Assembly: GCF_000025685.1 (NCBI RefSeq)
Contig: NC_013967.1
Location: 420,001 to 452,000 of the forward strand
Length of the DNA stretch: 32,000 bases
Direction of reading: 5' to 3'
Source of the DNA: Haloferax volcanii DS2
Lineage (GTDB): Archaea; Halobacteriota; Halobacteria; Halobacteriales; Haloferacaceae
Positions 2,480 through 26,800 of the stretch are shown here, one piece after another. The notes under the pieces were generated by a model. It ran no database searches. It saw only the letters and a program-made list of their open reading frames with translations, and was not told the DNA's origin. Position 1 is the stretch's first letter; each line of letters starts with the position of its first letter. A program made the position numbers and the translations under genes.

Positions 2480-2617
2480 GGTTGATTCACCGATACCTAG
2501 GTACGCGCTCTGCGGCTAAATCGTAGATTGGTGATTCCCGCGCCCGGAGACGCGTGACTGTCACGCCGGCCGACACGTCGACAAAAGCTAACTCCCTCGG
2601 CCGCGTCTCCCCCGCGT

Positions 2618-2818
2618 ATGCCCCGGCTCTCGTTCCTCCTCCCCGGCGAAGACGACACAATCGGTCGGTTTCTGACGCTCACGCTCGTCATTTACGCCGT
2701 TATCAGCGGTTTCGAAATCCTCGGCGTCCTCTGGGCGATGTGTCTCGCGATGGCGGTCTGGACGCTCGCCACCGCGATTCAAGGGTTCCGGTACGGTTAC
2801 CTCGAAGGCGCGACGTAG
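2618..2818 (+). CDS. small hydrophobic protein (2 predicted TM helices)
   Basis: 66 aa ATG-initiated ORF in an otherwise gene-free gap. An AT-rich box AAAAGCTAAC (2583-2592) lies ~30 nt upstream. No recognisable family. Confidence 0.4.
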   Translation: MPRLSFLLPGEDDTIGRFLTLTLVIYAVISGFEILGVLWAMCLAMAVWTLATAIQGFRYGYLEGAT

Positions 2819-2869
2819 TCGGCCAACCTGCCGCGCCCGCTTCCATCCACCCGCGTCGTTCCGCCTCGT

Positions 2870-3604
2870 CTACCCGCTGCCGCCCCAGTCTATCCAGTCC
2901 TGTTCCCAACCGTGGCCGGCGTGCCAGCCGCGACCCTCGTACTCGGGGTCCTCGCGGCGCGTCCGGTTTCTGACGATGCTTCCGGTCTGTTCGCCGTCGA
3001 CGAGCAGCGGCTTGAACGACAGCGGGCCGAACGACTCGGCCACTTCGCCGTCCTCGACGGCGACGAGCGTCTGCTCGCCGACGCCCTTCGGCATGACGAG
3101 TCGGCCGCCGTCAGCGAGCTGTGCGAGGAGTCGCGCGGGCGGGCGGACCGCCGAGGCCTCGACGAGGATGCGGTCGAAGGGCGCGTAGTCGGCCAGCCCC
3201 TCCGCGCCGTCGCGGCAGTCCACGAGGACGCCGCCGTAGCCGGCGCGCTGGAGGTTCTCGCGCGCCTCGTAGACGAGCGAGCGCGTGATGTCGACCGCGT
3301 GGACGCGGGCGTCGCCGACGATTTCGGCGAGGACCGCGGCGGTGTAGCCGACGCCCGCGCCGACGACGAGCACCTCGTCGTCCGGTTGGGGGTCGAGCGC
3401 GGCGAGCAGGCGCGCGACCGTCGTCGGCGCGAGGATGGTCGTGTTCGTGTCGCGGTGCTCCGTCGGGCGGTTCTGATACGGCGAGTCGGTGACGAACTCG
3501 TGTCGCGGGACGCTGCGCATGGCGATGGAGACGGCCTCCGGGAGCAACTCCAGCGAGTGCTCCAAGCCGTCGACCATGTCGTCGCGCAGCACCGAGTTGT
3601 CCAT
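2870..3604 (-). CDS. pcm: protein-L-isoaspartate O-methyltransferase
   Basis: 244 aa. PRHEFV block, SAM motif VLVVGAGVGYTAAVLAEIVG, DRILVEASA and GGRLVMP are typical PIMT signatures. Confidence 0.85.
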   Translation of the reverse strand: MDNSVLRDDMVDGLEHSLELLPEAVSIAMRSVPRHEFVTDSPYQNRPTEHRDTNTTILAPTTVARLLAALDPQPDDEVLVVGAGVGYTAAVLAEIVGDARVHAVDITRSLVYEARENLQRAGYGGVLVDCRDGAEGLADYAPFDRILVEASAVRPPARLLAQLADGGRLVMPKGVGEQTLVAVEDGEVAESFGPLSFKPLLVDGEQTGSIVRNRTRREDPEYEGRGWHAGHGWEQDWIDWGGSG

Positions 3605-3625: not shown

Positions 3626-4564
3626 CTAATCAACCGCACGCTCGCCAACGACCGCCTGGAGGTCGGTCCCCGGCACGTCTCGAACCGTACAGCCATCGAA
3701 TCCGGCCGATTCGACCCACGAGCGAACGGTCTCCTCGTCGTGGAGGTCGCCGCGGCCGGCGGCGAGCGCGTTCACCGCCCGCCCCGCAGTCGCGTCGGTC
3801 GAACACCGGCCGTGCAGGCTATCGACGAACACCGCCGCGCCGCCGGGTTCGAGAGCGTCGAACGCGCCCGCGACGAGGGCCCGCGCGTCGTCCGGGTCGC
3901 GCCCGGCGAAGGCGTCGCCGGCGAAGACCAGTTCGACCCCCGATACCGGCGGGTCGGCCGGGTCGCCCGCGACGAGATCCACGCCGGCCCGGGAGAGGAG
4001 CGGCCGGGCGACTTCCACGGTCTCCGCGTCGTCGACGAGGGTCACGTCGCGGCCGCGGGCGACGAACTCGCGGGCGAAGACGCCCGACGCGCCGCCGAGG
4101 TCGAGGACGCGCGTCGCGTCGGGAGCCGCGCGGACCGCGGCGGTCACGCAGGCCCGGACGACCGACTCCTCGGTGGCGTCGTGCGCGCCGAGTCGGTTCC
4201 GAAGCCAGTCGTCCGGGAACGCGGGTGGCTCGCCGGTCGCCATCGTCTCCGGGAGGTCGGCGTAGAGCGAAAAGCGGTCCAGCGCGTGCGGGAGGCGGCC
4301 GATGGAGCGCACGTCGCGCTTGGCGAGGAAGCCGAGCGCGCGGTTGGTTATCTCGTACTCGTCGCCGACGCGCTTGATGAAGCCCATCGCGGCCAGCGCC
4401 TCCACCGCGATGCGGGCGGCTCGGGGGTCGATACCGGCGGTGTCGGCCACGGCCTCGGCGGTGCCGGCGCTCGTCGTGAGCGCGTCGATGACGCCGCTCT
4501 CGCGGGCGGCCCACAGGAGCGCGAGCGATTCGACCGACGACTGCGACCGGTCGCGGGTAGGCAT
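3626..4564 (-). CDS. class I SAM-dependent methyltransferase with N-terminal winged-helix (O-methyltransferase-like) domain
   Basis: 312 aa. N-terminal wHTH-like segment (LLWAARESGVIDAL...AEAVADTAGIDPRAARIAVEALAAMGFIKR) and SAM motif RVLDLGGASGVFAREF. Lies 21 nt downstream of pcm on the same strand. Confidence 0.75.
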   Translation of the reverse strand: MPTRDRSQSSVESLALLWAARESGVIDALTTSAGTAEAVADTAGIDPRAARIAVEALAAMGFIKRVGDEYEITNRALGFLAKRDVRSIGRLPHALDRFSLYADLPETMATGEPPAFPDDWLRNRLGAHDATEESVVRACVTAAVRAAPDATRVLDLGGASGVFAREFVARGRDVTLVDDAETVEVARPLLSRAGVDLVAGDPADPPVSGVELVFAGDAFAGRDPDDARALVAGAFDALEPGGAAVFVDSLHGRCSTDATAGRAVNALAAGRGDLHDEETVRSWVESAGFDGCTVRDVPGTDLQAVVGERAVD

Positions 4565-4660
4565 GGTCGCACCGACGGGGCGGGAACAAAAAGGTCGTGC
4601 GTTGGGCAGGCGGTATCGTCCGGCGTCGGCGGGGCGGAGCGTTTCGGCGTCGGAGTTCCC

Positions 4661-5317
4661 TTACCAGGCCGACCACGCGGTCGAGGTCTGGTCGCGGGCG
4701 TAGACGCGTTTCGCGTCCTTCGCGTACACCATGTCGCCGGGGTGGTCGAGCTTGCCGTGGCGGTACTCAGGGGCGTCCGAGCGGACGACGAGGCCTTCGA
4801 TTTCGACCTCCTCGTCGCCGAACGCCTCCGTCTCGCCGACGACGAACTCGTAGTCGCCGGGGACGTTGACGGTGACGCTCCGGGTGTCCTCGCGCTTGCC
4901 GTCCTTCGGGTGGATAGTGACGTTGACCGCGACGTTGTCGACGACGCGGGTCCAGACGGTCTTCACGTCCGCGACTTCGGCCTCGTCGGCACGCTGTTCG
5001 GGGCCGACTTCGATGCCCGTGATGCGCACGAGCTGAATCGCCTCGGGCGTGTCGACGATGAACTCGTCGCCGACCTCGATGGTCGTGCCGACCGGCACGG
5101 GCACTTCGGTCGAGACGGAGTCGCCGTCCTGCGAGACGACGACGTTCATCTCGGTCTCGTCGGGAATCTCGACTTTCTCCTTGTGGACGTGGCTGCATTC
5201 GGTACACCGGACGGTCGAGTGACCGCCGGGCTTCAGCACCTCGTGGACGGTGGGTTCGTCGGGCGAACACGTCGGACAGGAGAGGGGGACGCGCTCGCCG
5301 GCGTCGGGTAGGCTCAT
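4661..5317 (-). CDS. HVO_0476-family zinc-finger protein
   Basis: Track ORF 4661..5398, trimmed to the ATG at 5317 (MSLPDAGERV). A TATA-like GCTTTTTAC lies ~27 nt upstream on the minus strand. N-terminal zinc ribbon CPTC...CTEC. Family name is from memory of haloarchaeal annotation. Confidence 0.75.
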   Translation of the reverse strand: MSLPDAGERVPLSCPTCSPDEPTVHEVLKPGGHSTVRCTECSHVHKEKVEIPDETEMNVVVSQDGDSVSTEVPVPVGTTIEVGDEFIVDTPEAIQLVRITGIEVGPEQRADEAEVADVKTVWTRVVDNVAVNVTIHPKDGKREDTRSVTVNVPGDYEFVVGETEAFGDEEVEIEGLVVRSDAPEYRHGKLDHPGDMVYAKDAKRVYARDQTSTAWSAW

Positions 5318-5455
5318 ACGGGTCGCTAGCCCATCAGGCCGTAAAAAGCCGCCTTTCTCCGCCTCGGCGTGGGACTCGGTGGCAGGACGCTCGCTCAACG
5401 AACGGGGCGAGCCGACCGACCGGACCGGCCGGTCACGGGCGCGGCGTGCGCCCGC

Positions 5456-6415
5456 TTAGGGTTGCGGCAGGTCGACTTCCTCGCCGTCGGCGTACACCGC
5501 CGGCTCGCGGATGATGCCGTCGAGGTGGAGCGGCGCGTCGGTGTCGCCGCCGATGCCGGCGTCGTCGCCGACGGCGATGTGGACCGTGCCCGCGGCCTTC
5601 TCGTCGAGCAGGACGGAGCCGACGAGGTCGGTGACGCCGACGTTGGTGCCGATGCCGATTTCGGCGAGGTTGTAGGCGTCGTCGCCAACCTCCTCGGCCG
5701 CGGCCTCGACCTGCTCGCGGATGTCGTCGTCGGAAATCTCGGTAACGTAGCCGTCTTCGACTTCGAAGCGGAGTTCCCGTCCCTCGTCGAGGAGGCCGTG
5801 GGGCATCATCGTCCCGTCGACGACGTAGGTGCCCGTCGCGGACGCGGGGCTGAGGAAGATTTCGCCCGCGGGGAGGTTCGAAAACGAGCCGGCCTCCGCG
5901 ATTGCGCCGGTGTCTGCGAGCCACTCGCGGTCGCCGCGGACGAACGTGATGTCCGTGCCTTTCTCGGTCGTGACGCGGAGTTCGTCGGCGCCGCCGACGG
6001 CGTCGAGCATCGCCGCGCTGTGGTCGTAGATGGCGTCGTAGTCGGCGTCGAGGCCGGTGACGAACACCTCCTCGGTGATTCCGGGAAGGGTCGCGCCGCG
6101 AGCGCCGGCGTCGCAGGCGTCGCCGCGAGCGCGGGTGTGGCTCAGGCTCTTCGTCGTCGGCGCGAGGAAGGCGTCGCAGGCCTGCATCGCGGCGGCGACC
6201 GGCGCGGGCGGCTCCTCGCCGTGTTGGTTCCCCGGGGGATAGCGGACGATGGTCGCGTCGTCGGTCACTTCGCCTGCGACCTCGTAGAGCGCCTCGCCGA
6301 TGCGCTCGCGCTTGTCATCGGTGACGACGACGAGCGACTCGTCGGGCTGGAGGTCGAGACACTGACGGACCGCCGTCTCGCTGGCGGCGCGGAGGTCGGC
6401 GTCGGCTTCGGTCAT
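5456..6415 (-). CDS. M29-family aminopeptidase
   Basis: Track ORF 5456..6454. I prefer the ATG at 6415 (MTEADADLRAASETAVRQCLDLQPDESLVVVTDD), a typical M29 N-terminus. Conserved NLPAGEIF, GTYVVDG, AEIGIGTN and DEKAAGTVHIAVG blocks. Confidence 0.8.
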   Translation of the reverse strand: MTEADADLRAASETAVRQCLDLQPDESLVVVTDDKRERIGEALYEVAGEVTDDATIVRYPPGNQHGEEPPAPVAAAMQACDAFLAPTTKSLSHTRARGDACDAGARGATLPGITEEVFVTGLDADYDAIYDHSAAMLDAVGGADELRVTTEKGTDITFVRGDREWLADTGAIAEAGSFSNLPAGEIFLSPASATGTYVVDGTMMPHGLLDEGRELRFEVEDGYVTEISDDDIREQVEAAAEEVGDDAYNLAEIGIGTNVGVTDLVGSVLLDEKAAGTVHIAVGDDAGIGGDTDAPLHLDGIIREPAVYADGEEVDLPQP

Positions 6416-19112: not shown

Positions 19113-19228
19113 TGAGGCCTCCCGGATTTGAACCTCACTCGCCCGCTCACTTTGTTCGCGTCGCTCGCGGGAACGGGGACAGCTCACTCTTCAGTCGAGT
19201 TCGTACCACTCTCGAATGAGAATCGCGT
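19113..19228 (-). pseudogene. degenerate tRNA-Phe copy interrupted by a 40-nt insertion in the T-stem
   Basis: 19117-19134 equals the tRNA-Phe 3' portion GCCTCCCGGATTTGAACC (18/18). 19175-19200 matches the variable loop and anticodon arm including GAA (24/26). 19135-19174 has no tRNA counterpart. The acceptor strands cannot pair. Confidence 0.6.
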
Positions 19229-19238
19229 AGAAACCGGA

Positions 19239-19312
19239 TGCCGCCTCCCGGATTTGAACCGGGGACAGCTCGATCTTCAGTCGAGTGCTCTCCCAGTCTG
19301 AGCTAAGGCGGC
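19239..19312 (-). tRNA. tRNA-Phe (anticodon GAA), copy 1
   Basis: Minus strand folds as GCCGCCT-TA-GCTC-AGACTGGGA-GAGC-A-CTCGA-CTGAAGA-TCGAG-CTGTC-CCCGG-TTCAAAT-CCGGG-AGGCGGC-A. Full cloverleaf, no encoded CCA. Confidence 0.95.
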
Positions 19313-19335
19313 GCGATTCGACAGACGCGCAGGAG

Positions 19336-19355
19336 CGAAAAAACCATTTCGAATT
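19336..19355 (-). promoter_or_regulatory. tRNA-Phe copy 1 promoter (BRE/TATA-like ATTCGAAATGGTTTTTT)
   Basis: On the minus strand a T6 tract (19338-19343) lies 26-31 nt upstream of the mature 5' end, preceded by TTCGAAA. Copy 2 has the same architecture. Confidence 0.45.
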
Positions 19356-19361
19356 GCGGCG

Positions 19362-20087
19362 CTACGACCCGCCGTACTCCGACTCTTCCCACCCCGTCAC
19401 GTCGCTCGGGATGAGTTCGCCGTTGACGTGCCACTCGCGCGGGCGGAACGAGATGCCGAGCAGCGTCGCGTAGAACCCGGCGACGAACGCGACGATGATG
19501 TTTCCGGGGACGCCGCCGATGCCGGCGCTCCCGACGGGGGTCGTTCCGTCCGTGTACGTCGTCAACTGGATGACCCACGCGGCGAGCATCACGAGGAACA
19601 GCGGCAGGTACACCCGCCGGAGCCGGTGGGCCAGCGCCTCCTCGAAGGGGATTTTCATGTTCGGCGTGCGGTAGTCCTCGCCGAGTTTCTCCCGCCAGTT
19701 CTCGTCGAGGACGCCGCCGTCCGGGTCGAGCGCGTACGCCCAGACGTTCTGCTGAATCAGCCGAACCCGAGAGCGCCAGATGTCGTACGCGCGGAAGCGA
19801 CGCGCCTCGATACTGAGGAAGATGCTCAGCGTCACCACTCCGAGCAGGATGAGGTAGTGCGGATGCGTTTGTGCGGAAAACGACCACGTCAGAATCCCGG
19901 CCATCAGCGTGATCGCCCAGTTGCTGGTCCGGTCCAGCCGCTCCCGCCACGATTTCATCCGGTGTATCTCTCCCCGATAGAGGTGCGCAAACGACGACCC
20001 CGGCCCCATCGTCTCGTCAAAGACGCCCGCGCCGATGTGGGTGTCGTCCATTCCCGCGGGAGGTTCCAGCTCCCCGTCGTCAGACAT
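19362..20087 (-). CDS. DUF2270-family integral membrane protein
   Basis: Track ORF 19362..20180, trimmed to the ATG at 20087 (MSDDGELEPP). Block YRGEIHRMKSWRERLDRTSNWAITLMAGILTW and four hydrophobic helices resemble DUF2270 as I remember it. Confidence 0.75.
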   Translation of the reverse strand: MSDDGELEPPAGMDDTHIGAGVFDETMGPGSSFAHLYRGEIHRMKSWRERLDRTSNWAITLMAGILTWSFSAQTHPHYLILLGVVTLSIFLSIEARRFRAYDIWRSRVRLIQQNVWAYALDPDGGVLDENWREKLGEDYRTPNMKIPFEEALAHRLRRVYLPLFLVMLAAWVIQLTTYTDGTTPVGSAGIGGVPGNIIVAFVAGFYATLLGISFRPREWHVNGELIPSDVTGWEESEYGGS

Positions 20088-20204
20088 TGTTGTTCGTTTG
20101 ATGCACAACTGCCAGAGGATAAGAGCCTTCTGGGTTACGGACCGAGGAAGGTGTCTCCTGCGCTCCGGCCGGCCTCGCACCGGACGGTCCCGTAGTTCAA
20201 GGGT

Positions 20205-20216
20205 GTGAAAAAACGC
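20205..20216 (-). terminator. oligo-T terminator of csp copy 1
   Basis: Minus strand GAGCGTTTTTTCAC (T6 = plus 20208-20213), 44 nt after the stop. A TTCGG-TTT-CCGAA hairpin sits directly after the stop codon. Confidence 0.5.
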
Positions 20217-20256
20217 TCAGAAATCGATTCGTCTGGTACTGAATTCGGAAACCGAA

Positions 20257-20451
20257 TTACAGGCGCGTGACGTTCGTCGCGCGCGGGCCCTTGGGGGCCT
20301 GTTCGATGTCGAACTCCACTTCCTGACCCTCTTCGAGGTCCGGACCGCCAACATCTTCCATGTGGAAGAACACGTCGTCGTCCGCGTCGTCAGTAGAGAT
20401 GAAACCGTAACCGCCAGTGTCGTTGAAGAAGTCGACCTTACCTTTCGCCAT
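20257..20451 (-). CDS. cspA: cold-shock protein (CspA family), copy 1
   Basis: 64 aa: MAKGKVDFFNDTGGYGFISTDDADDDVFFHMEDVGGPDLEEGQEVEFDIEQAPKGPRATNVTRL. RNP-1-like GYGFI and RNP-2-like VFFH motifs. Confidence 0.95.
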   Translation of the reverse strand: MAKGKVDFFNDTGGYGFISTDDADDDVFFHMEDVGGPDLEEGQEVEFDIEQAPKGPRATNVTRL

Positions 20452-20551
20452 TGCGACTGTACAACGACCCTGCGGACGGATAACCTTTCCGCATGTGTGG
20501 GTATCGCTCGCCCAGTCGACGACTCGCCACCGAGCGCCGCCGCTCGCGGTC

Positions 20552-20562
20552 GTGAAAAACGG
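20552..20562 (-). terminator. oligo-T terminator of csp copy 2
   Basis: Minus strand CTCCGTTTTTCAC (T5 = plus 20555-20559), ~52 nt after the stop. Confidence 0.5.
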
Positions 20563-20610
20563 AGGAAAGTTCGTCAGTCTGTGAATGTACTGCGGTGAAC
20601 GGAAGCCTGC

Positions 20611-20805
20611 TTAGAGGCGGGTGACGTTCGTCGCGCGGGGGCCCTTGGGGGCCTGCTCGATATCGAATTCGATTTCCTGACCCTCTTCGAGGTCCGGACC
20701 GCCAACATCTTCCATGTGGAAGAACACGTCGTCGTCCGCGTCGTCAGTAGAGATGAAACCGTAGCCGCCAGTGTCGTTGAAGAAGTCGACCTTACCTTTC
20801 GCCAT
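20611..20805 (-). CDS. cspA: cold-shock protein (CspA family), copy 2
   Basis: Track ORF 20611..20898, trimmed to MAKGKVDFFN (ATG 20805). 63/64 aa identical to copy 1 (V to I). Confidence 0.95.
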   Translation of the reverse strand: MAKGKVDFFNDTGGYGFISTDDADDDVFFHMEDVGGPDLEEGQEIEFDIEQAPKGPRATNVTRL

Positions 20806-20991
20806 TGCCTTTGAAACCAACGACCTCACGCTGATAAGTCTTCTGAAGCACGCCTCGGCTTCCCGTAGTGCGGTATAGACGACTCTCCGTGGTTGCACCG
20901 CCCAGATTCCGCGTCGTTCGTATTGCGTCGTTGAGAATTCGGTCGTCGTTTTTCCGAGGTGACTCTCGGCCCCGACGTTCTATGTCGCTCC

Positions 20992-21235
20992 CCGCCTCCC
21001 GGATTTGAACCTCACTCGCTCGCTCACTTCGTTCGCGTCGCTCGCTGGTTCAGAACCCGGTCGGGTCGCATTTTCACTGCTCACGACTCGGTCGCTACGC
21101 TCCCTCGGTAGTTCGCAGGAAAATGCCGCCTCCCGGATTTGAACCGAAAGAAGGCTCACTACGTTCGAATTCTTGGGTTCAAATCGGTCCGGCGTCGTTT
21201 CTTCGATTCTTCGCGTCGCTCAGAATCTCAGAATA
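20992..21235 (-). repeat. two tandem tRNA-Phe-3'-end-anchored repeat units (A 20992-21123, B 21124-21235)
   Basis: 20992-21011 (20 nt) and 21124-21146 (23 nt) are identical to the 3' end of the adjacent tRNA-Phe. Each is followed by GCTCACTNCGTTCG (21022-21036, 21154-21168) and an imperfect inverted T-arm copy. Confidence 0.7.
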
Positions 21236-21309
21236 TGCCGCCTCCCGGATTTGAACCGGGGACAGCTCGATCTTCAGTCGAGTGCTCTCCCAGTCTGAGC
21301 TAAGGCGGC
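21236..21309 (-). tRNA. tRNA-Phe (anticodon GAA), copy 2
   Basis: 74/74 identical to 19239..19312. Confidence 0.95.
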
Positions 21310-21335
21310 TCGCACTCTCCCGAAACCGGACCGCA

Positions 21336-21355
21336 TCAAAAAGACTTTCGAATCG
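21336..21355 (-). promoter_or_regulatory. tRNA-Phe copy 2 promoter (BRE/TATA-like ATTCGAAAGTCTTTTTG)
   Basis: On the minus strand a T5 tract (21338-21342) lies 29-33 nt upstream of the mature 5' end, preceded by TTCGAAA. Confidence 0.45.
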
Positions 21356-21370
21356 CCCGTCGGCGCTGGG

Positions 21371-22048
21371 TCAGCGGTGCCGACCGCCGGTCGCGCTCGC
21401 CCGCGCCCGCTCCGCCCGCGAACGAATCCCTTTGAGCATCTTCCGTTCCATGGTGAACTGGACCGGCTCGACGACTAACCGATTCACCGCGCGCTCGCGG
21501 AGCGTCTCCGACCGCCCGCGGAATCTGACGACCAACCGCGTCGCACCGGGTACCACCTCGTGCAGCGCGAAGCTCCACGTCGCCCGGCTCTCGCCGGTCT
21601 CCCACCCCGGCGCGCTCAACACGAGGCAGCGTTCGGTGTCCACGAAGGCGACCCGGAACGACGGCGCGCCCGACCCCGGCGGGCCGAGCCGTATCTCGTC
21701 GCCCACGTCGAGTCGCTGGTGTTGCGGGAGGATTCGGTCCGCGTTATGAATCTGCAAGCCGAACAGGTTCTCCAGTCGCTCGTAGCTGTAAAAGCCGCCG
21801 CGGCCCTGTCCCAACTGGACGAGCCACGGCCAGACCGCTCGCGCGGGGGCCATAATCGTAATCGCCCGCGTCGAAGAAACGTCCGCGTCGCCGGCGAAGT
21901 CGTCGCCGGGGAGCCAGCCCGTCGCCTCGTCGTCGGTCGTCCCCCAGCGTCTGTGCCACGGCCGAACCGCGAGGAGGTACGTCCCGACGACGCCGATTCC
22001 CGCGAGACCGAGTGCCCGGATGAGTCGTCTCGTGCCCATTGCCTTCAC
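21371..22048 (-). CDS. SRPBCC (START/polyketide-cyclase-like) family protein with N-terminal TM anchor
   Basis: 225 aa from the GTG at 22048; an ATG alternative is at 22039 (MGTRRLIRALG). Block AVWPWLVQLGQGRGGFYSYERLENLFG is typical of SRPBCC-fold proteins. Confidence 0.7.
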   Translation of the reverse strand: MKAMGTRRLIRALGLAGIGVVGTYLLAVRPWHRRWGTTDDEATGWLPGDDFAGDADVSSTRAITIMAPARAVWPWLVQLGQGRGGFYSYERLENLFGLQIHNADRILPQHQRLDVGDEIRLGPPGSGAPSFRVAFVDTERCLVLSAPGWETGESRATWSFALHEVVPGATRLVVRFRGRSETLRERAVNRLVVEPVQFTMERKMLKGIRSRAERARASATGGRHR

Positions 22049-22084
22049 CGTTCGTGCCCCCCTTGGAGAGGGGGTGAGATAACC

Positions 22085-22546
22085 CTACCCCCGAGCGTCC
22101 GCGACCCGAACGGCCGCGACCCAGACGACCCCGCCGAGGACCGCGCCAGCGAGGTTCGCTCCCGCGTCAGCGACGCCGAACGACCGGTACGGGAGCACCG
22201 CCTGCACGAGTTCGATACCCGCTCCGAACGCGCCGGCGGCGAGGACGGCCGCCGCGACCTCGTCGCGCCCCCTCGCACGCACCGCGGACGCGAAGGCGAA
22301 GCCGAGACCGGCGTACCCGGCCGCGTGGACCCATTTGTCGAGGCCGACGACTCCGAGCGGTCCCATCGGTGCGAGGCTCCCCGGCGGCGTCGGCGCGACC
22401 GACGCCGCGAAAACGCCGAGCGCGCACCCGAGGGCGACGGCCGCCCACCGCGGGTTCTCGCGGAGTCGCGTGATTGGGTTCACTACCCGGTTGTGGGTCC
22501 GTCTCGGGTAAAGGGTTCGTGTCTTCGTGGCTTCGAACGCGACCAC
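22085..22546 (-). CDS. VanZ-like membrane protein
   Basis: 153 aa from the GTG at 22546; start uncertain, with an alternative GTG at 22483. Blocks DKWVHAAGYAGLGFAF and GIELVQAVLPYRSFGVADAGANLAGAVLG fit VanZ. Lies 36 nt upstream of the SRPBCC gene, so probably an operon. Confidence 0.65.
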   Translation of the reverse strand: MVAFEATKTRTLYPRRTHNRVVNPITRLRENPRWAAVALGCALGVFAASVAPTPPGSLAPMGPLGVVGLDKWVHAAGYAGLGFAFASAVRARGRDEVAAAVLAAGAFGAGIELVQAVLPYRSFGVADAGANLAGAVLGGVVWVAAVRVADARG

Positions 22547-22586
22547 ACGGAACTAAATAGCAGGTGGAAGACACGTTTCGACTACC

Positions 22587-22790
22587 GTGTCACTACTCCC
22601 CCGCTGGTTCACGTCGAAGAACTTCGCAGTACAGCTCGTCATCCTCGCGTTGGTGCTCGACCCGGTCGGGTTCGTCGGCGGCTACCTCCTCGGTCCGTCG
22701 CTGGGCGTCGACCCGCTCGTCGGCGGCGCGTTCGGTCTCGTCGCCGCCAGCGTCCCGATGTCGCTGCTCGTGATGCAACGGAGCGTGTGA
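22587..22790 (+). CDS. small hydrophobic protein (2 TM)
   Basis: 67 aa GTG-initiated ORF. TATA-like ACTAAATAGC (22551-22560) lies ~28 nt upstream (leaderless spacing). No recognisable family. Confidence 0.4.
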   Translation: MSLLPRWFTSKNFAVQLVILALVLDPVGFVGGYLLGPSLGVDPLVGGAFGLVAASVPMSLLVMQRSV

Positions 22791-22802
22791 GTCGGCGGTT
22801 TG

Positions 22803-23017
22803 GTTGCTCGGGCGGATTCGAACCTCGGTCGCTCACTCCGTTCGCTCCCTGATTCGAATCGCCCTCGATCCACGAGTTCGTGCCCGCTGTCGCTCGCACA
22901 GAATTAGTGGGCTCGGGCGGATTCGAACCACTCCGTCAACCTCGCTTCGCTCGGTTGCCGCAAGGTTCTCCCGCCCTCTCGACAGAAAATCACGCTCGCT
23001 GCGCTCACGGATTTTCA
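22803..23017 (-). repeat. two tandem tRNA-Val-3'-end-anchored repeat units (V1 22803-22907, V2 22908-23017)
   Basis: 22806-22824 (19 nt) and 22908-22930 (23 nt) are identical to the 3' end of the adjacent tRNA-Val. V1 carries GCTCACTCCGTTCGC (22831-22845). V2 carries a CAACC-TCGCTTCGCTC-GGTTG hairpin (22937-22957). Confidence 0.7.
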
Positions 23018-23091
23018 TGGGCTCGGGCGGATTCGAACCACCGACCTCAGCCTTGTAAAGGCCGCGTCATAACCAACTAGACCACGAGCCC
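23018..23091 (-). tRNA. tRNA-Val (anticodon UAC)
   Basis: Minus strand folds as GGGCTCG-TG-GTCT-AGTTGGTTA-TGAC-G-CGGCC-TTTACAA-GGCTG-AGGTC-GGTGG-TTCGAAT-CCGCC-CGAGCCC-A. TATA-like CGTTATGA lies ~32 nt upstream. Confidence 0.95.
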
Positions 23092-26077: not shown

Positions 26078-26800
26078 ATGCGACTCTCCGAAGCCACTTG
26101 GACCGAGGTCGCTGACCTCGACGGCGACCTCGCGCTCCTCCCGGTCGGAAGCACGGAACAGCATGGCCCGCACGCGCCGCTCGGCACCGACGCGCTCAAC
26201 GCCGAATCGGTCGCCGAGGTCGGTGCCGACGCGTTCGACGGCGAGGTCGTCGTCGGCCCGACTATCCCGGTCAGCGTCGCCGAGGAACACCGCGCCTTCG
26301 ACGGCACGCTCTGGGTCTCGCCGGACACCTTCCGCGCGTACGTCCGCGAGACTATCGAATCGCTCGCCCACCACGGCTTCGACCGCGTCGTCGTCGTCAA
26401 CGGCCACGGCGGTAACATCGACGCGCTCGCGGAGCTCTGTCGGCGCGTCTCGCGGACGGGCGACGTTTACGCGGTCGCGTTCACGTGGTTCGACGCCGTC
26501 GGTGACCACTCCTCGGACATGGGCCACGGCGGCCCGTTAGAAACCGCCTTACTCCGCCACACGCACCCCGAACTGGTCCGTGAGGACCGAATCGACGAGG
26601 CCCGCGATGGAGGTGCCGACCGCTGGGGCGAGTGGGTCTCGGGCGTCAACCTGGCCCACGACTCCGACGAGTTCACCGACAACGGCGTCGTCGGCGACCC
26701 CGCCAAGGGTGACGCCGACCGCGGCGCGGAACTGGAATCGCTCGCGGCCGACTCGCTCGCGTCGCTCCTCGACGCGGTCGAAAGCCGGAAACTCGACTGA
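26078..26800 (+). CDS. creatininase-family amidohydrolase (ArfB-like)
   Basis: Track ORF 25745..26800 overlaps the ABC gene, so trimmed to the ATG at 26078 (MRLSEATWTEV). Motifs LLPVGSTEQHGPHAPLGTD, VVVNGHGGN and GHGGPLETA. Confidence 0.85.
   Translation: MRLSEATWTEVADLDGDLALLPVGSTEQHGPHAPLGTDALNAESVAEVGADAFDGEVVVGPTIPVSVAEEHRAFDGTLWVSPDTFRAYVRETIESLAHHGFDRVVVVNGHGGNIDALAELCRRVSRTGDVYAVAFTWFDAVGDHSSDMGHGGPLETALLRHTHPELVREDRIDEARDGGADRWGEWVSGVNLAHDSDEFTDNGVVGDPAKGDADRGAELESLAADSLASLLDAVESRKLD

Follow-up and report, generated by a model that had tools for sequence, protein, structure and literature searches.

Hairpin cassettes ending in tRNA 3' ends form a family of short non-coding repeats behind tRNA genes of Haloferax volcanii DS2 and other Halobacteria

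A 32,000-nt stretch of the Haloferax volcanii DS2 chromosome (positions 420001-452000, hereafter the window) contains two tRNA-Phe genes and one tRNA-Val gene that are followed, directly at their 3' ends, by five short non-coding repeat units, each ending in a copy of the 3' end of its own tRNA. These units belong to a previously uncharacterised family of non-coding hairpin cassettes, about 55-135 nt long, that occurs throughout the Halobacteria. We interpret them, with a probability of roughly 55%, as modular DNA cassettes, each bringing a replacement tRNA end, whose gain and loss take place at the repeat formed by the T-loop and 3' end of a tRNA gene.

All five units lie on the minus strand, the sense strand of the three tRNA genes, with one unit behind tRNA-Phe copy 1 and two each behind tRNA-Phe copy 2 and tRNA-Val. 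This arrangement had been proposed in an initial annotation made from the sequence alone, and the tRNA-end copies were recovered here in repeat families D2 and D7 (Table 1). The units measure 102-132 nt, with 80-110 nt of non-coding DNA between repeats and a terminal tRNA-end copy of 22 nt that is identical to the gene at 19-22 of 22 positions. In five of five units the copy starts at the same place, between tRNA nt 51 and 52 (directly after GAACC, read on the plus strand), and the common breakpoint described in the annotation is thereby borne out. Its further statement that the gene-proximal copies are fully identical to the gene holds for tRNA-Phe copy 2 and for tRNA-Val (22/22 each) but not for the single unit behind tRNA-Phe copy 1 (20/22).

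Four of the five units are made up of two hairpins on the tRNA-sense strand. Hairpin A begins directly past the discriminator base of the tRNA, and hairpin B closes the unit. The 3' arm of hairpin B is the copy of tRNA nt 52-73 itself, comprising the T-loop, the 3' strand of the T-stem, the 3' strand of the acceptor stem, and the discriminator base, and containing GGTTCRAATCC; the 5' arm is the inverted complement of this copy. At the top of hairpin B, Watson-Crick steps of 2 bp alternate with tandem G.A pairs and are capped by a GNA triloop, as in unit Val_u2, which reads GG-GA-GC-GA-AC-GGA-GT-GA-GC-GA-CC. Hairpin A has an apex of like kind, GA-GC-NNN-GC-GA. The remaining unit, Phe1_u1, differs from the other four: it is a decayed tRNA-Phe from the anticodon arm on (nt ~26-73), interrupted by a 40-nt GA-hairpin insert, and it shows no significant structure (folding z +0.37).

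The initial annotation had drawn attention to two motifs in these units. The first, GCTCACTNCGTTCG, has four matches at no more than one mismatch, every one inside a unit, where 0.15 would be expected (0 of 100 shuffles reach 4). The second, TCGCKTCGCTC, has four matches in units and a fifth at 26757 in a coding region, five in all against 0.5 expected, with no shuffle as high; expectations are from dinucleotide-preserving shuffles of the window. Both recurrences are thus upheld, but the two motifs are not separate signals. The 14-mer is the reverse complement of the hairpin B apex and the 11-mer corresponds to the apex of hairpin A, and both are instances of a single apex, GA-RC-NNN-GY-GA, at the tip of hairpins on the tRNA-sense strand. 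The additional TCGCGTCGCTC at 26757 is a chance match inside a creatininase coding region. In generalised form the apex reads GARCNNNGYGA, a pattern with 37 matches in the window, compared to 13.8 expected; 11 of these matches are inside the five units, all on the minus strand. Origin of the units by chance or from low-complexity sequence is excluded by the shuffles and by the covariance-model census described below.

The predicted structure is markedly asymmetric between strands. Sense-strand folds of the four two-hairpin units range from -39.5 to -50 kcal/mol (z -2.3 to -3.2), while antisense folds of the same units are weaker by 6-14 kcal/mol (z -1.6 to +0.35). A tandem G.A pair becomes C.T on the opposite strand, and the relevant structure should therefore be single-stranded and of tRNA sense. 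By this modeling the hairpin apex is stable on the tRNA-sense strand only, and RNA and single-stranded DNA are indistinguishable by sequence. The apex GA-RC-GNA-GY-GA has tandem G.A pairs with a 7-nt segment between them and in this recalls the kink-turn and K-loop RNAs bound by L7Ae, in which tandem sheared G.A pairs flank a loop or bulge, a resemblance only. Likeness of the apex to the sarcin-ricin loop, the hammerhead, or domain 5 of group II introns was considered, and no fit was seen by eye. An intact, intron-containing, or split tRNA, or a bulge-helix-bulge splice motif at nt 51/52, was likewise rejected: the 5' half is missing, ARAGORN makes no call, and inspection by eye showed no pair of 3-nt bulges around a 4-bp helix.

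Table 1. Positions of tRNA genes, repeat units, their parts, and associated features (window coordinates, except for the last row; CM, covariance model; z, folding z-score)
Feature	Position	Strand	Basis and remarks
tRNA-Phe(GAA) copy 1, HVO_0495.tRNA	19239-19312	minus	ARAGORN; Rfam tRNA 65.5 bits; locus tag via coordinate offset
Unit Phe1_u1 ("T-type"), behind tRNA-Phe copy 1	19113-19238	minus	Repeat families D2, D4, D5; CM 32 bits, E 1e-4
Phe1_u1, decayed copy of tRNA-Phe nt ~26-51 (preceded by a leader)	19175-19200	minus	Repeat comparison
Phe1_u1, 40-nt GA-hairpin insert	19135-19174	minus	Between tRNA nt 51 and 52, exactly before G52
Phe1_u1, copy of tRNA nt 52-73	19113-19134	minus	Repeat comparison; 20/22
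tRNA-Phe(GAA) copy 2, HVO_0499.tRNA	21236-21309	minus	ARAGORN; Rfam
Unit Phe2_u1 ("a"), behind tRNA-Phe copy 2	21124-21235	minus	Hairpin A 21199-21233; hairpin B 21127-21194; fold -39.5 kcal/mol, z -3.24 sense vs -1.23 antisense; CM 46 bits
Phe2_u1, copy of tRNA nt 52-73	21124-21145	minus	Repeat comparison; 22/22
Unit Phe2_u2 ("c")	20992-21123	minus	Hairpin A 21071-21123, TTTTCC at start; hairpin B 20993-21065; fold -50 kcal/mol, z -2.61 sense vs +0.35 antisense; CM 64 bits
Phe2_u2, tRNA-end copy	20992-21013	minus	Repeat comparison; 20/22
tRNA-Val(TAC)	23018-23091	minus	ARAGORN; Rfam
Unit Val_u1 ("v1"), behind tRNA-Val	22908-23017	minus	Hairpin A 22985-23016; hairpin B 22915-22976, apex GAGCGAAGCGAG; fold -46.3 kcal/mol, z -2.91; CM 27 bits
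Val_u1, tRNA-end copy	22908-22929	minus	Repeat comparison; 22/22
Unit Val_u2 ("v2")	22806-22907	minus	Hairpin A 22877-22903; hairpin B 22810-22864, consensus apex GGGAGCGAACGGAGTGAGCGACC; fold -40.5 kcal/mol, z -2.32; CM 65 bits, E 8e-13; ends 16 nt from the stop codon of convergent open reading frame 22587-22790
Val_u2, tRNA-end copy	22806-22824	minus	Repeat comparison; 19/22
SRPBCC protein gene	21371-22039	minus	Product identical at 222/222 residues to H. volcanii ADE03382.1
Mapped RNA 3' end, +123 behind HVO_0499.tRNA	21113 (chromosome 441113)	minus	PMC7237163 supplement
Mapped RNA 3' end, +206 behind HVO_0499.tRNA	21030 (chromosome 441030)	minus	PMC7237163 supplement
Features of locus L057, Halovenus halobia	2529-3539 (minus), 3633-3656, 4005-5978, 6192-6272		

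A scan of one genome per species for the exact apex, followed by GGTTC within 4-12 nt, found at least 120 loci, among them at least about 55 in Halobacteria of many genera. Among the matches listed, at least about 35 of the Halobacteria loci lie 57-130 nt behind a tRNA gene on the same strand. The units occur behind at least twelve isotypes (Val, Arg, Asp, Gly, Leu, Pro, His, Lys, Ser, Thr, Glu, and Phe), and in the tRNA-linked Halobacteria loci the sequence past GGTTC is the adjoining tRNA's own 3' end, often at 21-22 of 22 positions. The preference expressed in the initial annotation for a site-specific process at the T-arm, over random decay of duplicated tRNAs, is strongly supported by the same breakpoint at nt 51/52 and the same apex behind so many isotypes in many genera. 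Conservation of the apex in this set is by construction, because the scan demanded it exactly, and apex variation is visible only in the unbiased sets, namely the Haloferax orthologous loci, the H. volcanii-group genomes, and the metagenome tRNA-Phe trailers. The census as a whole rests on 8-kb blocks around pattern matches and on metagenome contigs, with thresholds for calling a tRNA-end copy (at least 16-17 of 22 identical) that are arbitrary, yet far above chance. The shortest units are 54 nt, and Haloarchaeobius baliensis has four tandem copies behind tRNA-Leu. A CRISPR-like array of four 54-nt repeats at locus L034 was judged to be a tandem duplication instead, because all of its "spacers" are identical. 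Retro-copying of mature tRNA was also rejected, the haloarchaeal copies being without CCA.

The arms of hairpin B follow tRNA identity, while hairpin A and the apex stay constant. In an alignment of 31 hairpin-B sequences, counting pairs for a structure that we specified ourselves, 84% of cells are paired, compared to 78% in shuffles and 18-41% when partner columns are slid. Two-sided changes occur in 10 of 16 arm pairs. The A/G variant position of the T-loop is matched by the 5' arm in every sequence (UA in 21, CG in 10, unpaired in 0; n=31). The covariation score is 0.236 vs 0.134 for shuffles, none of 500 being as high, and does not exceed 0.09 with slid partner columns. Duplexes between arm and core are stronger for cognate than for non-cognate combinations (permutation p <= 1e-4; 22 units, L046 and L089 left out). 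A covariance model built from the alignment of relatives recovers all five window units, with E-values from 8e-13 to 1.7e-3, and finds no further match at E<0.1 in the 32-kb window. An Rfam 15 search at gathering scores of the window and 16 related loci returned only tRNAs and unrelated families, none of them for the units.

An unbiased estimate of prevalence was obtained by scanning metagenome contigs with the 5' 49 nt of tRNA-Phe, keeping trailers with at least 300 nt downstream, and counting copies within 600 nt. Of 95 distinct tRNA-Phe trailers, 51 have between one and three tRNA-end copies (36 with one, 11 with two, and 4 with three), and several of the "empty" trailers contain decayed units or other small elements that abut the tRNA. 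For other tRNAs on the same contigs the figure is 25 of 38, including 20 of 27 for tRNA-Val(TAC), and the inverted arm is present as well in 18 of the 25 copy-bearing trailers. The T-type unit, represented in the window by Phe1_u1, is widespread among the metagenome tRNA-Phe trailers. There it has a conserved leader (..ATTCTACGCGATT..), often followed by a perfect copy of tRNA-Phe nt 26-52, then one or two GA hairpins, and finally nt 52-73. Nested inserts directly after GGTTCA occur at two loci (L086 and L054).

Comparison of orthologous loci shows that the units turn over rapidly. We examined four other Haloferax species and eight genomes of the H. volcanii group, in which the flanking protein is identical at 219-222 of 222 residues. 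All have the same three tRNA genes, with differing trailers, and units are present, absent, or swapped among near-identical strains, an outcome that favours a mobile or recombinational origin. The array behind tRNA-Phe copy 1 is {T} in DS2 and {b,T}, {a,b}, or {a,b,T} in H. volcanii-group strains; behind tRNA-Phe copy 2 it is {a,c} or {c} across the group. The Val array is {v1,v2} in DS2, {v3,v2} in most relatives, and a v3/v2 hybrid in two, which takes its hairpin A from v3 and its hairpin B from v2, with the join inside the 5' arms. In H. mediterranei, three units follow tRNA-Val. Every difference between arrays is bounded by a tRNA-end copy or an arm. Between species, the apical stems appear as fully compensated blocks (AAATC-GAA-GATTT, AACGC-GAA-GCGTT, AACTC-TCC-GAGTT) in flanks that are nearly identical, which implies replacement rather than point mutation. 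At L134 an inverted Val-type unit sits within a Phe trailer, with its junction exactly after GAACC. Two H. volcanii-group sequences, the genome at L258 and the H. volcanii sequencing run at L270, are without the 2-kb csp-csp-DUF2270 segment that lies between the two tRNA-Phe genes (19313-21235), and its absence looks like a deletion between tRNA-Phe direct repeats. In draft assemblies (L261, L262, L269) the arrays show an N, apparent extra tRNA-Phe copies, or truncated csp calls; the cassette repeats evidently break short-read assembly, and copy numbers from drafts should therefore be treated with caution.

The order of units within an array is regular and shows an age gradient, the newest unit lying beside the gene. 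In Haloferax the order a-b-T is constant, with "a" always adjacent to the gene and T always the most distal. In the window (three arrays) and in most Haloferax arrays examined, the proximal tRNA-end copy matches the gene at 22 of 22 positions and distal copies at 19-21. Exceptions are the Val arrays of the H. denitrificans group at L134, L135, and L137, where the distal copy is nearer to the gene sequence than the proximal one, and the single units behind tRNA-Phe copy 1 in DS2 (20/22) and at L136 (19/22).

The trailer of tRNA-Phe copy 2 is transcribed together with the tRNA. We took RNA 3' ends from the published mapping by Berkemer et al. (PMC7237163 supplement), converting chromosome coordinates with an offset of 420000; as a check, ends mapped 56/57 nt past HVO_0497/HVO_0498 fall 56/57 nt past the stops of the two csp genes (window 20257/20611). 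Two ends map behind HVO_0499.tRNA. The end at +123 follows the tRNA-end copy of unit "a" at a distance of 11 nt and comes directly after UUUUCC. Unit "a" itself starts with TATTCT and has no T-run, and in strains without "a" the sequence TTTTCC directly follows tRNA-Phe copy 2, so that the DS2 transcript must cross "a" to reach a displaced terminator. The +123 end thus looks like the displaced original terminator of this gene. It may mark an intrinsic-terminator-like signal, to which the preceding hairpin may or may not contribute. The end at +206 falls within unit "c", in the GAA loop that caps its hairpin B (apex 21022-21035). This is an odd place for exonuclease trimming to stop and suggests either cleavage in the loop or an artefact of mapping where the hairpin is very stable. 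The 3'-end table of PMC7237163 lists no end behind tRNA-Val or tRNA-Phe copy 1. Strong ends at comparable distances, +145/+207, +137, and +78/+133, lie behind three other H. volcanii tRNA genes, the set being HVO_0288, HVO_0458, and HVO_0517 (PMC7237163).

We propose that these observations reflect a cycle of insertion at the tRNA gene. Cassettes would accumulate head-to-tail directly behind the gene, each entering or leaving through recombination within the 22-nt tRNA-end sequence, with the common left limit at nt 51/52. The tRNA gene would stay intact because the cassette brings its own copy of the tRNA end, and the former end, together with the oligo-T terminator, would be displaced downstream. 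Since former ends would be pushed away in this manner, older cassettes should be found farther from the gene and more decayed, and the newest unit should be the gene-adjacent one. Entry at the T-loop would probably occur through a dedicated recombination activity acting in trans or through homologous exchange; in the second case foreign DNA would be the source, with the tRNA and the next repeat serving as arms. A mismatched end would ruin a tRNA that is often single-copy, and hence only cognate insertions would be expected to persist. Such filtering by selection would presumably explain why arms are specific to each tRNA, with no need for a separate recombinase per tRNA. Later duplications, deletions, and hybrids would require only recombination between direct tRNA-end repeats and between arms. 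The cassettes are transcribed along with the tRNA, as a structured trailer that would reach to the displaced terminator.

Several findings weigh against this proposal. No free or full-length element, and no junction, was found in viral contigs, phages, or plasmids, the plasmid set perhaps being poor in archaeal replicons, and a search of the window's 18 largest open reading frames (ORFs) and of the genes called near the locus found no integrase or transposase domain, in agreement with the initial annotation. Homologous recombination of the 22-nt repeats, combined with allelic exchange, could produce all of the polymorphism observed. The matching of both arms of hairpin B to a new tRNA would have to come about by selection, gene conversion, or fold-back copying. 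Near-universal presence together with transcription would also fit a selected RNA function. Lastly, some metagenome arrays have no clean age gradient, with identity there measured against the H. volcanii sequence.

A selected RNA function, as fail-safe terminators, 3' protection, trailer-derived small RNA, or a K-loop-like RNA, is the first alternative to be weighed. The units would then arise by local duplication of tRNA ends and be kept by selection, and their polymorphism would be turnover of redundant copies; we think this unlikely, both as to function and as to origin. The RNA ends at +123 and +206 behind HVO_0499.tRNA, and at +78 to +207 behind HVO_0288, HVO_0458, and HVO_0517, agree with it, as do the specificity of the structure for the transcribed strand, the compensatory variation in arms and apical stems, and the finding of a unit behind half to two-thirds of Phe and Val genes. 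Hairpins have been reported upstream of 503 termination sites in H. volcanii, and one such hairpin terminated 59% of transcripts in vivo (PMC7237163). Against it, unit number and identity shift among near-identical strains, some strains or genes have none, and the displaced oligo-T would by itself account for the +123 end. Units of a further type, described below as X-type, have the GA apex on the opposite strand. Unit lineages, such as one with the variant core GTTCACAATCC, occur on many contigs regardless of the sequence of the adjacent gene. No Rfam family covers the units and no tRNA-like fold is found, which also disposes of half of a suggestion in the initial annotation: the units are indeed transcribed trailers, but they are not tRNA-like. 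RNA function and mobility are not mutually exclusive, and may coexist.

A second alternative holds that the units are scars of large tyrosine-integrase elements, such as proviruses or genomic islands, that inserted at the tRNA 3' end and lost their interiors, so that just their two ends and the duplicated att core remained, with repeated rounds giving stacks. Duplication of tRNA 3' ends by such elements is established in haloarchaea, with 14-bp cores for the SNJ2 type (PMC5861418) and, in H. gibbonsii, integrative genetic elements (IGEs) with 18-42-bp repeats and "remnants adjacent to a full copy" (PMC7921747). Locus L057 of Halovenus halobia has a tyrosine integrase by a tRNA-end copy of 13 nt, with a 2.6-kb Fic/DUF7342 segment ahead of a hairpin-B unit, and short X-type units with 14-nt cores exist. 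However, about 35 of 36 tRNA-linked matches listed have the minimal form of 55-135 nt with constant boundaries, a product that independent deletions would not repeat. The same hairpin A and apex are found behind at least twelve tRNAs, whereas integrase subgroups are bound to one tRNA (PMC5861418), and the 5' arm covaries with the tRNA, for which the arm of an element has no reason. The junction was seen in no virus, provirus, or plasmid searched, and the hairpin unit of L057 stands apart from the att sequence of the integrase element itself. Simple deletion scars are accordingly unlikely. The candidate of stacked att-like miniature cassettes put forward in the initial annotation comes closest to our own proposal; a full-length integrase-bearing element with these ends was, however, not found in the genomes, viral contigs, phages, or plasmids searched.

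At locus L057 the integrase gene adjoins the 13-nt tRNA-end copy and is followed by the 2.6-kb Fic/DOC + DUF7342 segment; the hairpin-B unit lies past that segment and interrupts a second short tRNA-end copy. Here a single tRNA target bears a stack of both classical integrase elements and hairpin cassettes. The X-type units (L013, L043, L099, L114) read GAGTCCC-ACTCGCTTCGCTCGC-GGGACTC, and the tRNA copy that comes next is limited to the final 14 nt. In their loop the GA apex appears as its reverse complement, which means that the other strand is the one on which the G.A hairpin would form. At L043 and L114 the tRNA end and X unit are duplicated around a unit of hairpins A and B.

A more specific form of the cassette proposal, which we regard as unlikely, makes hairpin B a folded single-strand recombination site like integron attC or the attP(+) of CTX phage, and the whole an archaeal tRNA-anchored system for cassette capture. 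[quoted passage not shown] Were this correct, the occurrence of a 17-nt apex behind tRNAs of Saccharibacteria and Omnitrophota would point to a mechanism that crosses domains.

The same apex, AGCGAACGNAGTGAGCG, was indeed observed in bacterial tRNA flanks at L010 (873-901), L033 (7234-7261), and L110 (3616-3638). In two Saccharibacteria it lies behind tRNA-Asp and tRNA-Arg, and the tRNA-Asp locus, L010, also has an inverted T-arm copy, and its tRNA end and terminator recur there as a direct repeat of 57 nt. In a metagenome-assembled genome of Omnitrophota it lies behind tRNA-Gly; the copy is identical at 22 of 22 positions, with CCA after the copy but not after the gene. Either homology across domains or convergence could underlie these bacterial cases.

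The least probable alternative, in our estimation very unlikely, derives the units from IS200/IS605 insertion sequences (IS), as palindrome-associated transposable elements (PATEs) or "solo" palindromes: hairpins A and B would be subterminal palindromes moved in single-stranded form by TnpA acting in trans, with insertion next to a tetra- or pentanucleotide of the T-loop. Haloarchaea are rich in PATEs, including 52-bp forms that consist of termini only, and small mobile repeats of about 110 bp insert into palindromes (PMC3119063; PMC7921747 supplement). The two palindromes, the lack of terminal inverted repeats, and the strand-specific hairpins are what single-strand recognition would predict; inserts are found repeatedly at GGTTC itself, and the non-coding "class 2" family with the same apex, described below, is scattered at gene ends. 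But such elements make no target duplication, and every unit is flanked by a 22-nt tRNA-specific repeat. No 4-5-nt cleavage or target sequence is common to unit ends, hairpin B arms change with the tRNA, and a sequence search found the apex absent from the Haloquadratum PATE and palindrome tables. A T-arm-targeting insertion sequence in the usual sense, the remaining candidate in the initial annotation, finds no support, as the units have neither terminal inverted repeats nor a short target duplication nor a conserved terminal oligonucleotide.

The units share individual properties with several known systems. Like haloarchaeal tyrosine-integrase elements (SNJ2-type, and IGEs of the XerC/D type), they keep the gene intact by a direct repeat of the tRNA 3' end, with new insertions adjacent to the gene, older ones farther away, and the tRNA 3' flank acting as a hot spot. 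Unlike them, the units are non-coding and 55-135 nt long, have a repeat of 22 nt fixed at nt 52 instead of 14-42 bp, use a single hairpin set for at least twelve tRNAs with the copy inside a hairpin, and come with no integrase found. Judged as att duplications, they have the copy of the tRNA end (22 nt, 19-22/22) but not the kb-sized, integrase-bearing interior. A search for an attP with the same core and arms gave no haloarchaeal match in viral contigs and no BLAST match in phages or plasmids, sets that may include few archaeal replicons. Cis-mobilisable miniature integrative elements (CIMEs), known from Streptococcus, consist of DNA that has no recombination genes of its own, is bounded by att sites, and is moved by an integrase acting in trans. 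The units resemble them in being non-autonomous, in having att-like repeats at the 3' end of a tRNA or other gene, and in tandem stacking, but CIMEs are kb-sized derivatives of a known integrative and conjugative element, whereas the units are of about 100 nt, have conserved hairpins, and have no known parent.

Among small repeats, miniature inverted-repeat transposable elements differ from the units, whose ends (TTTTCCTGCG... / ...GCGAGTGA and others) are not inverted repeats and whose flanking repeat is 22 nt and always a tRNA end. The PATEs and the small mobile repeat SMR-A of Haloquadratum and other haloarchaea are free of transposase and of terminal inverted repeats, 50-110 bp long, with palindromes near the ends, insertion into hairpin-forming sequences, and strain-specific presence (PMC3119063), all of which the units share. 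The units likewise have palindromes near both ends, lack terminal inverted repeats, and are too short to code; in contrast, PATEs and SMR-A make no duplication and have conserved terminal oligonucleotides, whereas the units are bounded by a tRNA-end copy. We found no terminal oligonucleotide shared among units a, b, c, T, and v1-v3. Repetitive extragenic palindromic (REP) sequences and bacterial interspersed mosaic elements are also abundant intergenic hairpins at gene 3' ends, in bacteria affecting transcript ends and stability, but the units have no REP-associated tyrosine transposase and no GTAG head, and are tied to tRNA-end copies.

Integron attC arrays offer a parallel in form: short cassettes in tandem at a fixed site, an imperfect hairpin with conserved structure and variable sequence, one strand favoured, and GTT/AAC at the hairpin base. 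The attC boxes RYYYAAC/GTTRRRY are nevertheless unmatched, the base of hairpin B being ...TTYGAAYC/GGTTCRAA with C at the R position, and the units have no ORFs, the window has no IntI, and integrons are bacterial. The t-elements known upstream of 5S rRNA in H. volcanii and in plant mitochondria are similarly tRNA-derived flanks of a transcript, potentially seen by tRNA-processing enzymes. The units, however, have neither the 5' acceptor strand nor the 5' T-stem strand, their T-loop is predicted to pair in a long helix, and neither ARAGORN nor the Rfam tRNA model matches them.

The hairpin architecture, the apex, the spread over isotypes and genera, the turnover among strains, and the link to RNA ends are apparently undescribed in the searchable literature. 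Integrating elements classically land at tRNA 3' ends, yet those described so far are kb-sized, each with its own integrase, and partial tRNAs have been treated as by-products of 9-23-kb integrations (bioRxiv 2022.07.05.498093); the haloarchaeal units have had no more than brief mention, under the description "partial tRNAs adjacent to a full copy". Yet this class of ~100-nt cassettes is very abundant, conserved, and fast in turnover. It is found behind at least half of sampled tRNA-Phe and tRNA-Val genes across the Halobacteria, and it is present in the best-studied haloarchaeal model organism, H. volcanii. If mobile, the cassettes imply that some recombination activity targets the universal T-loop and that selection, not protein specificity, chooses the tRNA. 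If they act as RNA, a structured, G.A-rich trailer is added to many archaeal tRNA transcripts, and we offer the units as an explanation of the strong RNA 3' ends seen 80-200 nt behind tRNA genes. In either case they matter for tRNA annotation, where they yield false "partial tRNAs", for strain typing, and for genome plasticity, as their direct repeats delete intervening genes such as the 2-kb csp segment.

Related repeats with the same apex were encountered at other loci. The "class 2" family, found in many Halobacteria, is non-coding, 130-270 nt long, and begins with GAGCATCCGCGAG-CGAACGNAGTGAGC-GAGCGGTTCACC, contains variable GC hairpins, and ends with CTTTTTCATGAACGTTTTTGC-[hairpin]-GCAAAAAGGTGGG. 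Its members lie at gene 3' ends (L004, L012, L019, L023, L028, L035, L047, L055, L066, L073, L074, L092, L094, L116, L119) and also behind tRNA-Phe (L142, L150, L156, L180, L205, L245), with inverted copies abutting the tRNA-Phe discriminator base. This family looks like a mobile module resembling a bidirectional terminator, or an IS-derived element. A third conserved non-coding element, with multiple hairpins and the same apex (..GACGTAAGGACCGCAGGAGCGAACGGAGTGAGCGACGAGGAGCGTGGTTCGAAAGAGC..TCGTCATC..), occurs at L005, L051, L056, L085, and L095. A scan of two of these loci (L005 and L056) gave no match in Rfam, and the element may be an undescribed structured RNA.

In Betaproteobacteria, a REP-like repeat, GCGCCCCCTCGGGGGGCAG-CGAACGAAGTGAGCG-TGGGGGTTC, has an identical 15-nt apex. 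It was seen at L006, L015, L024, L025, L049, L052, L058, L090, L101, L104, and L105, and in viral sequences at L122 and L132; L104 has three tandem 78-nt copies. Planctomycetes and others have related repeats of the form cctctccc..gggagagg tcg CGAACGNAGTGAGC.

Elsewhere in the window, ARAGORN calls a 95-nt tRNA-Leu(GAG) at 2996-3090 on the minus strand. We judged this call to be a false positive, since the sequence is part of a gene for a protein-L-isoaspartate methyltransferase (2870-3604, PCMT E 1e-36) and the Rfam tRNA model does not match there. An ORF at 720-2294 on the minus strand has an NrS-1 polymerase helix-bundle domain (E 2e-27); NrS-1-like primase-polymerases are usually found on mobile elements or viruses. 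The two csp genes form a tandem pair, with 94% identity over 209 nt (20246-20454 and 20600-20808).

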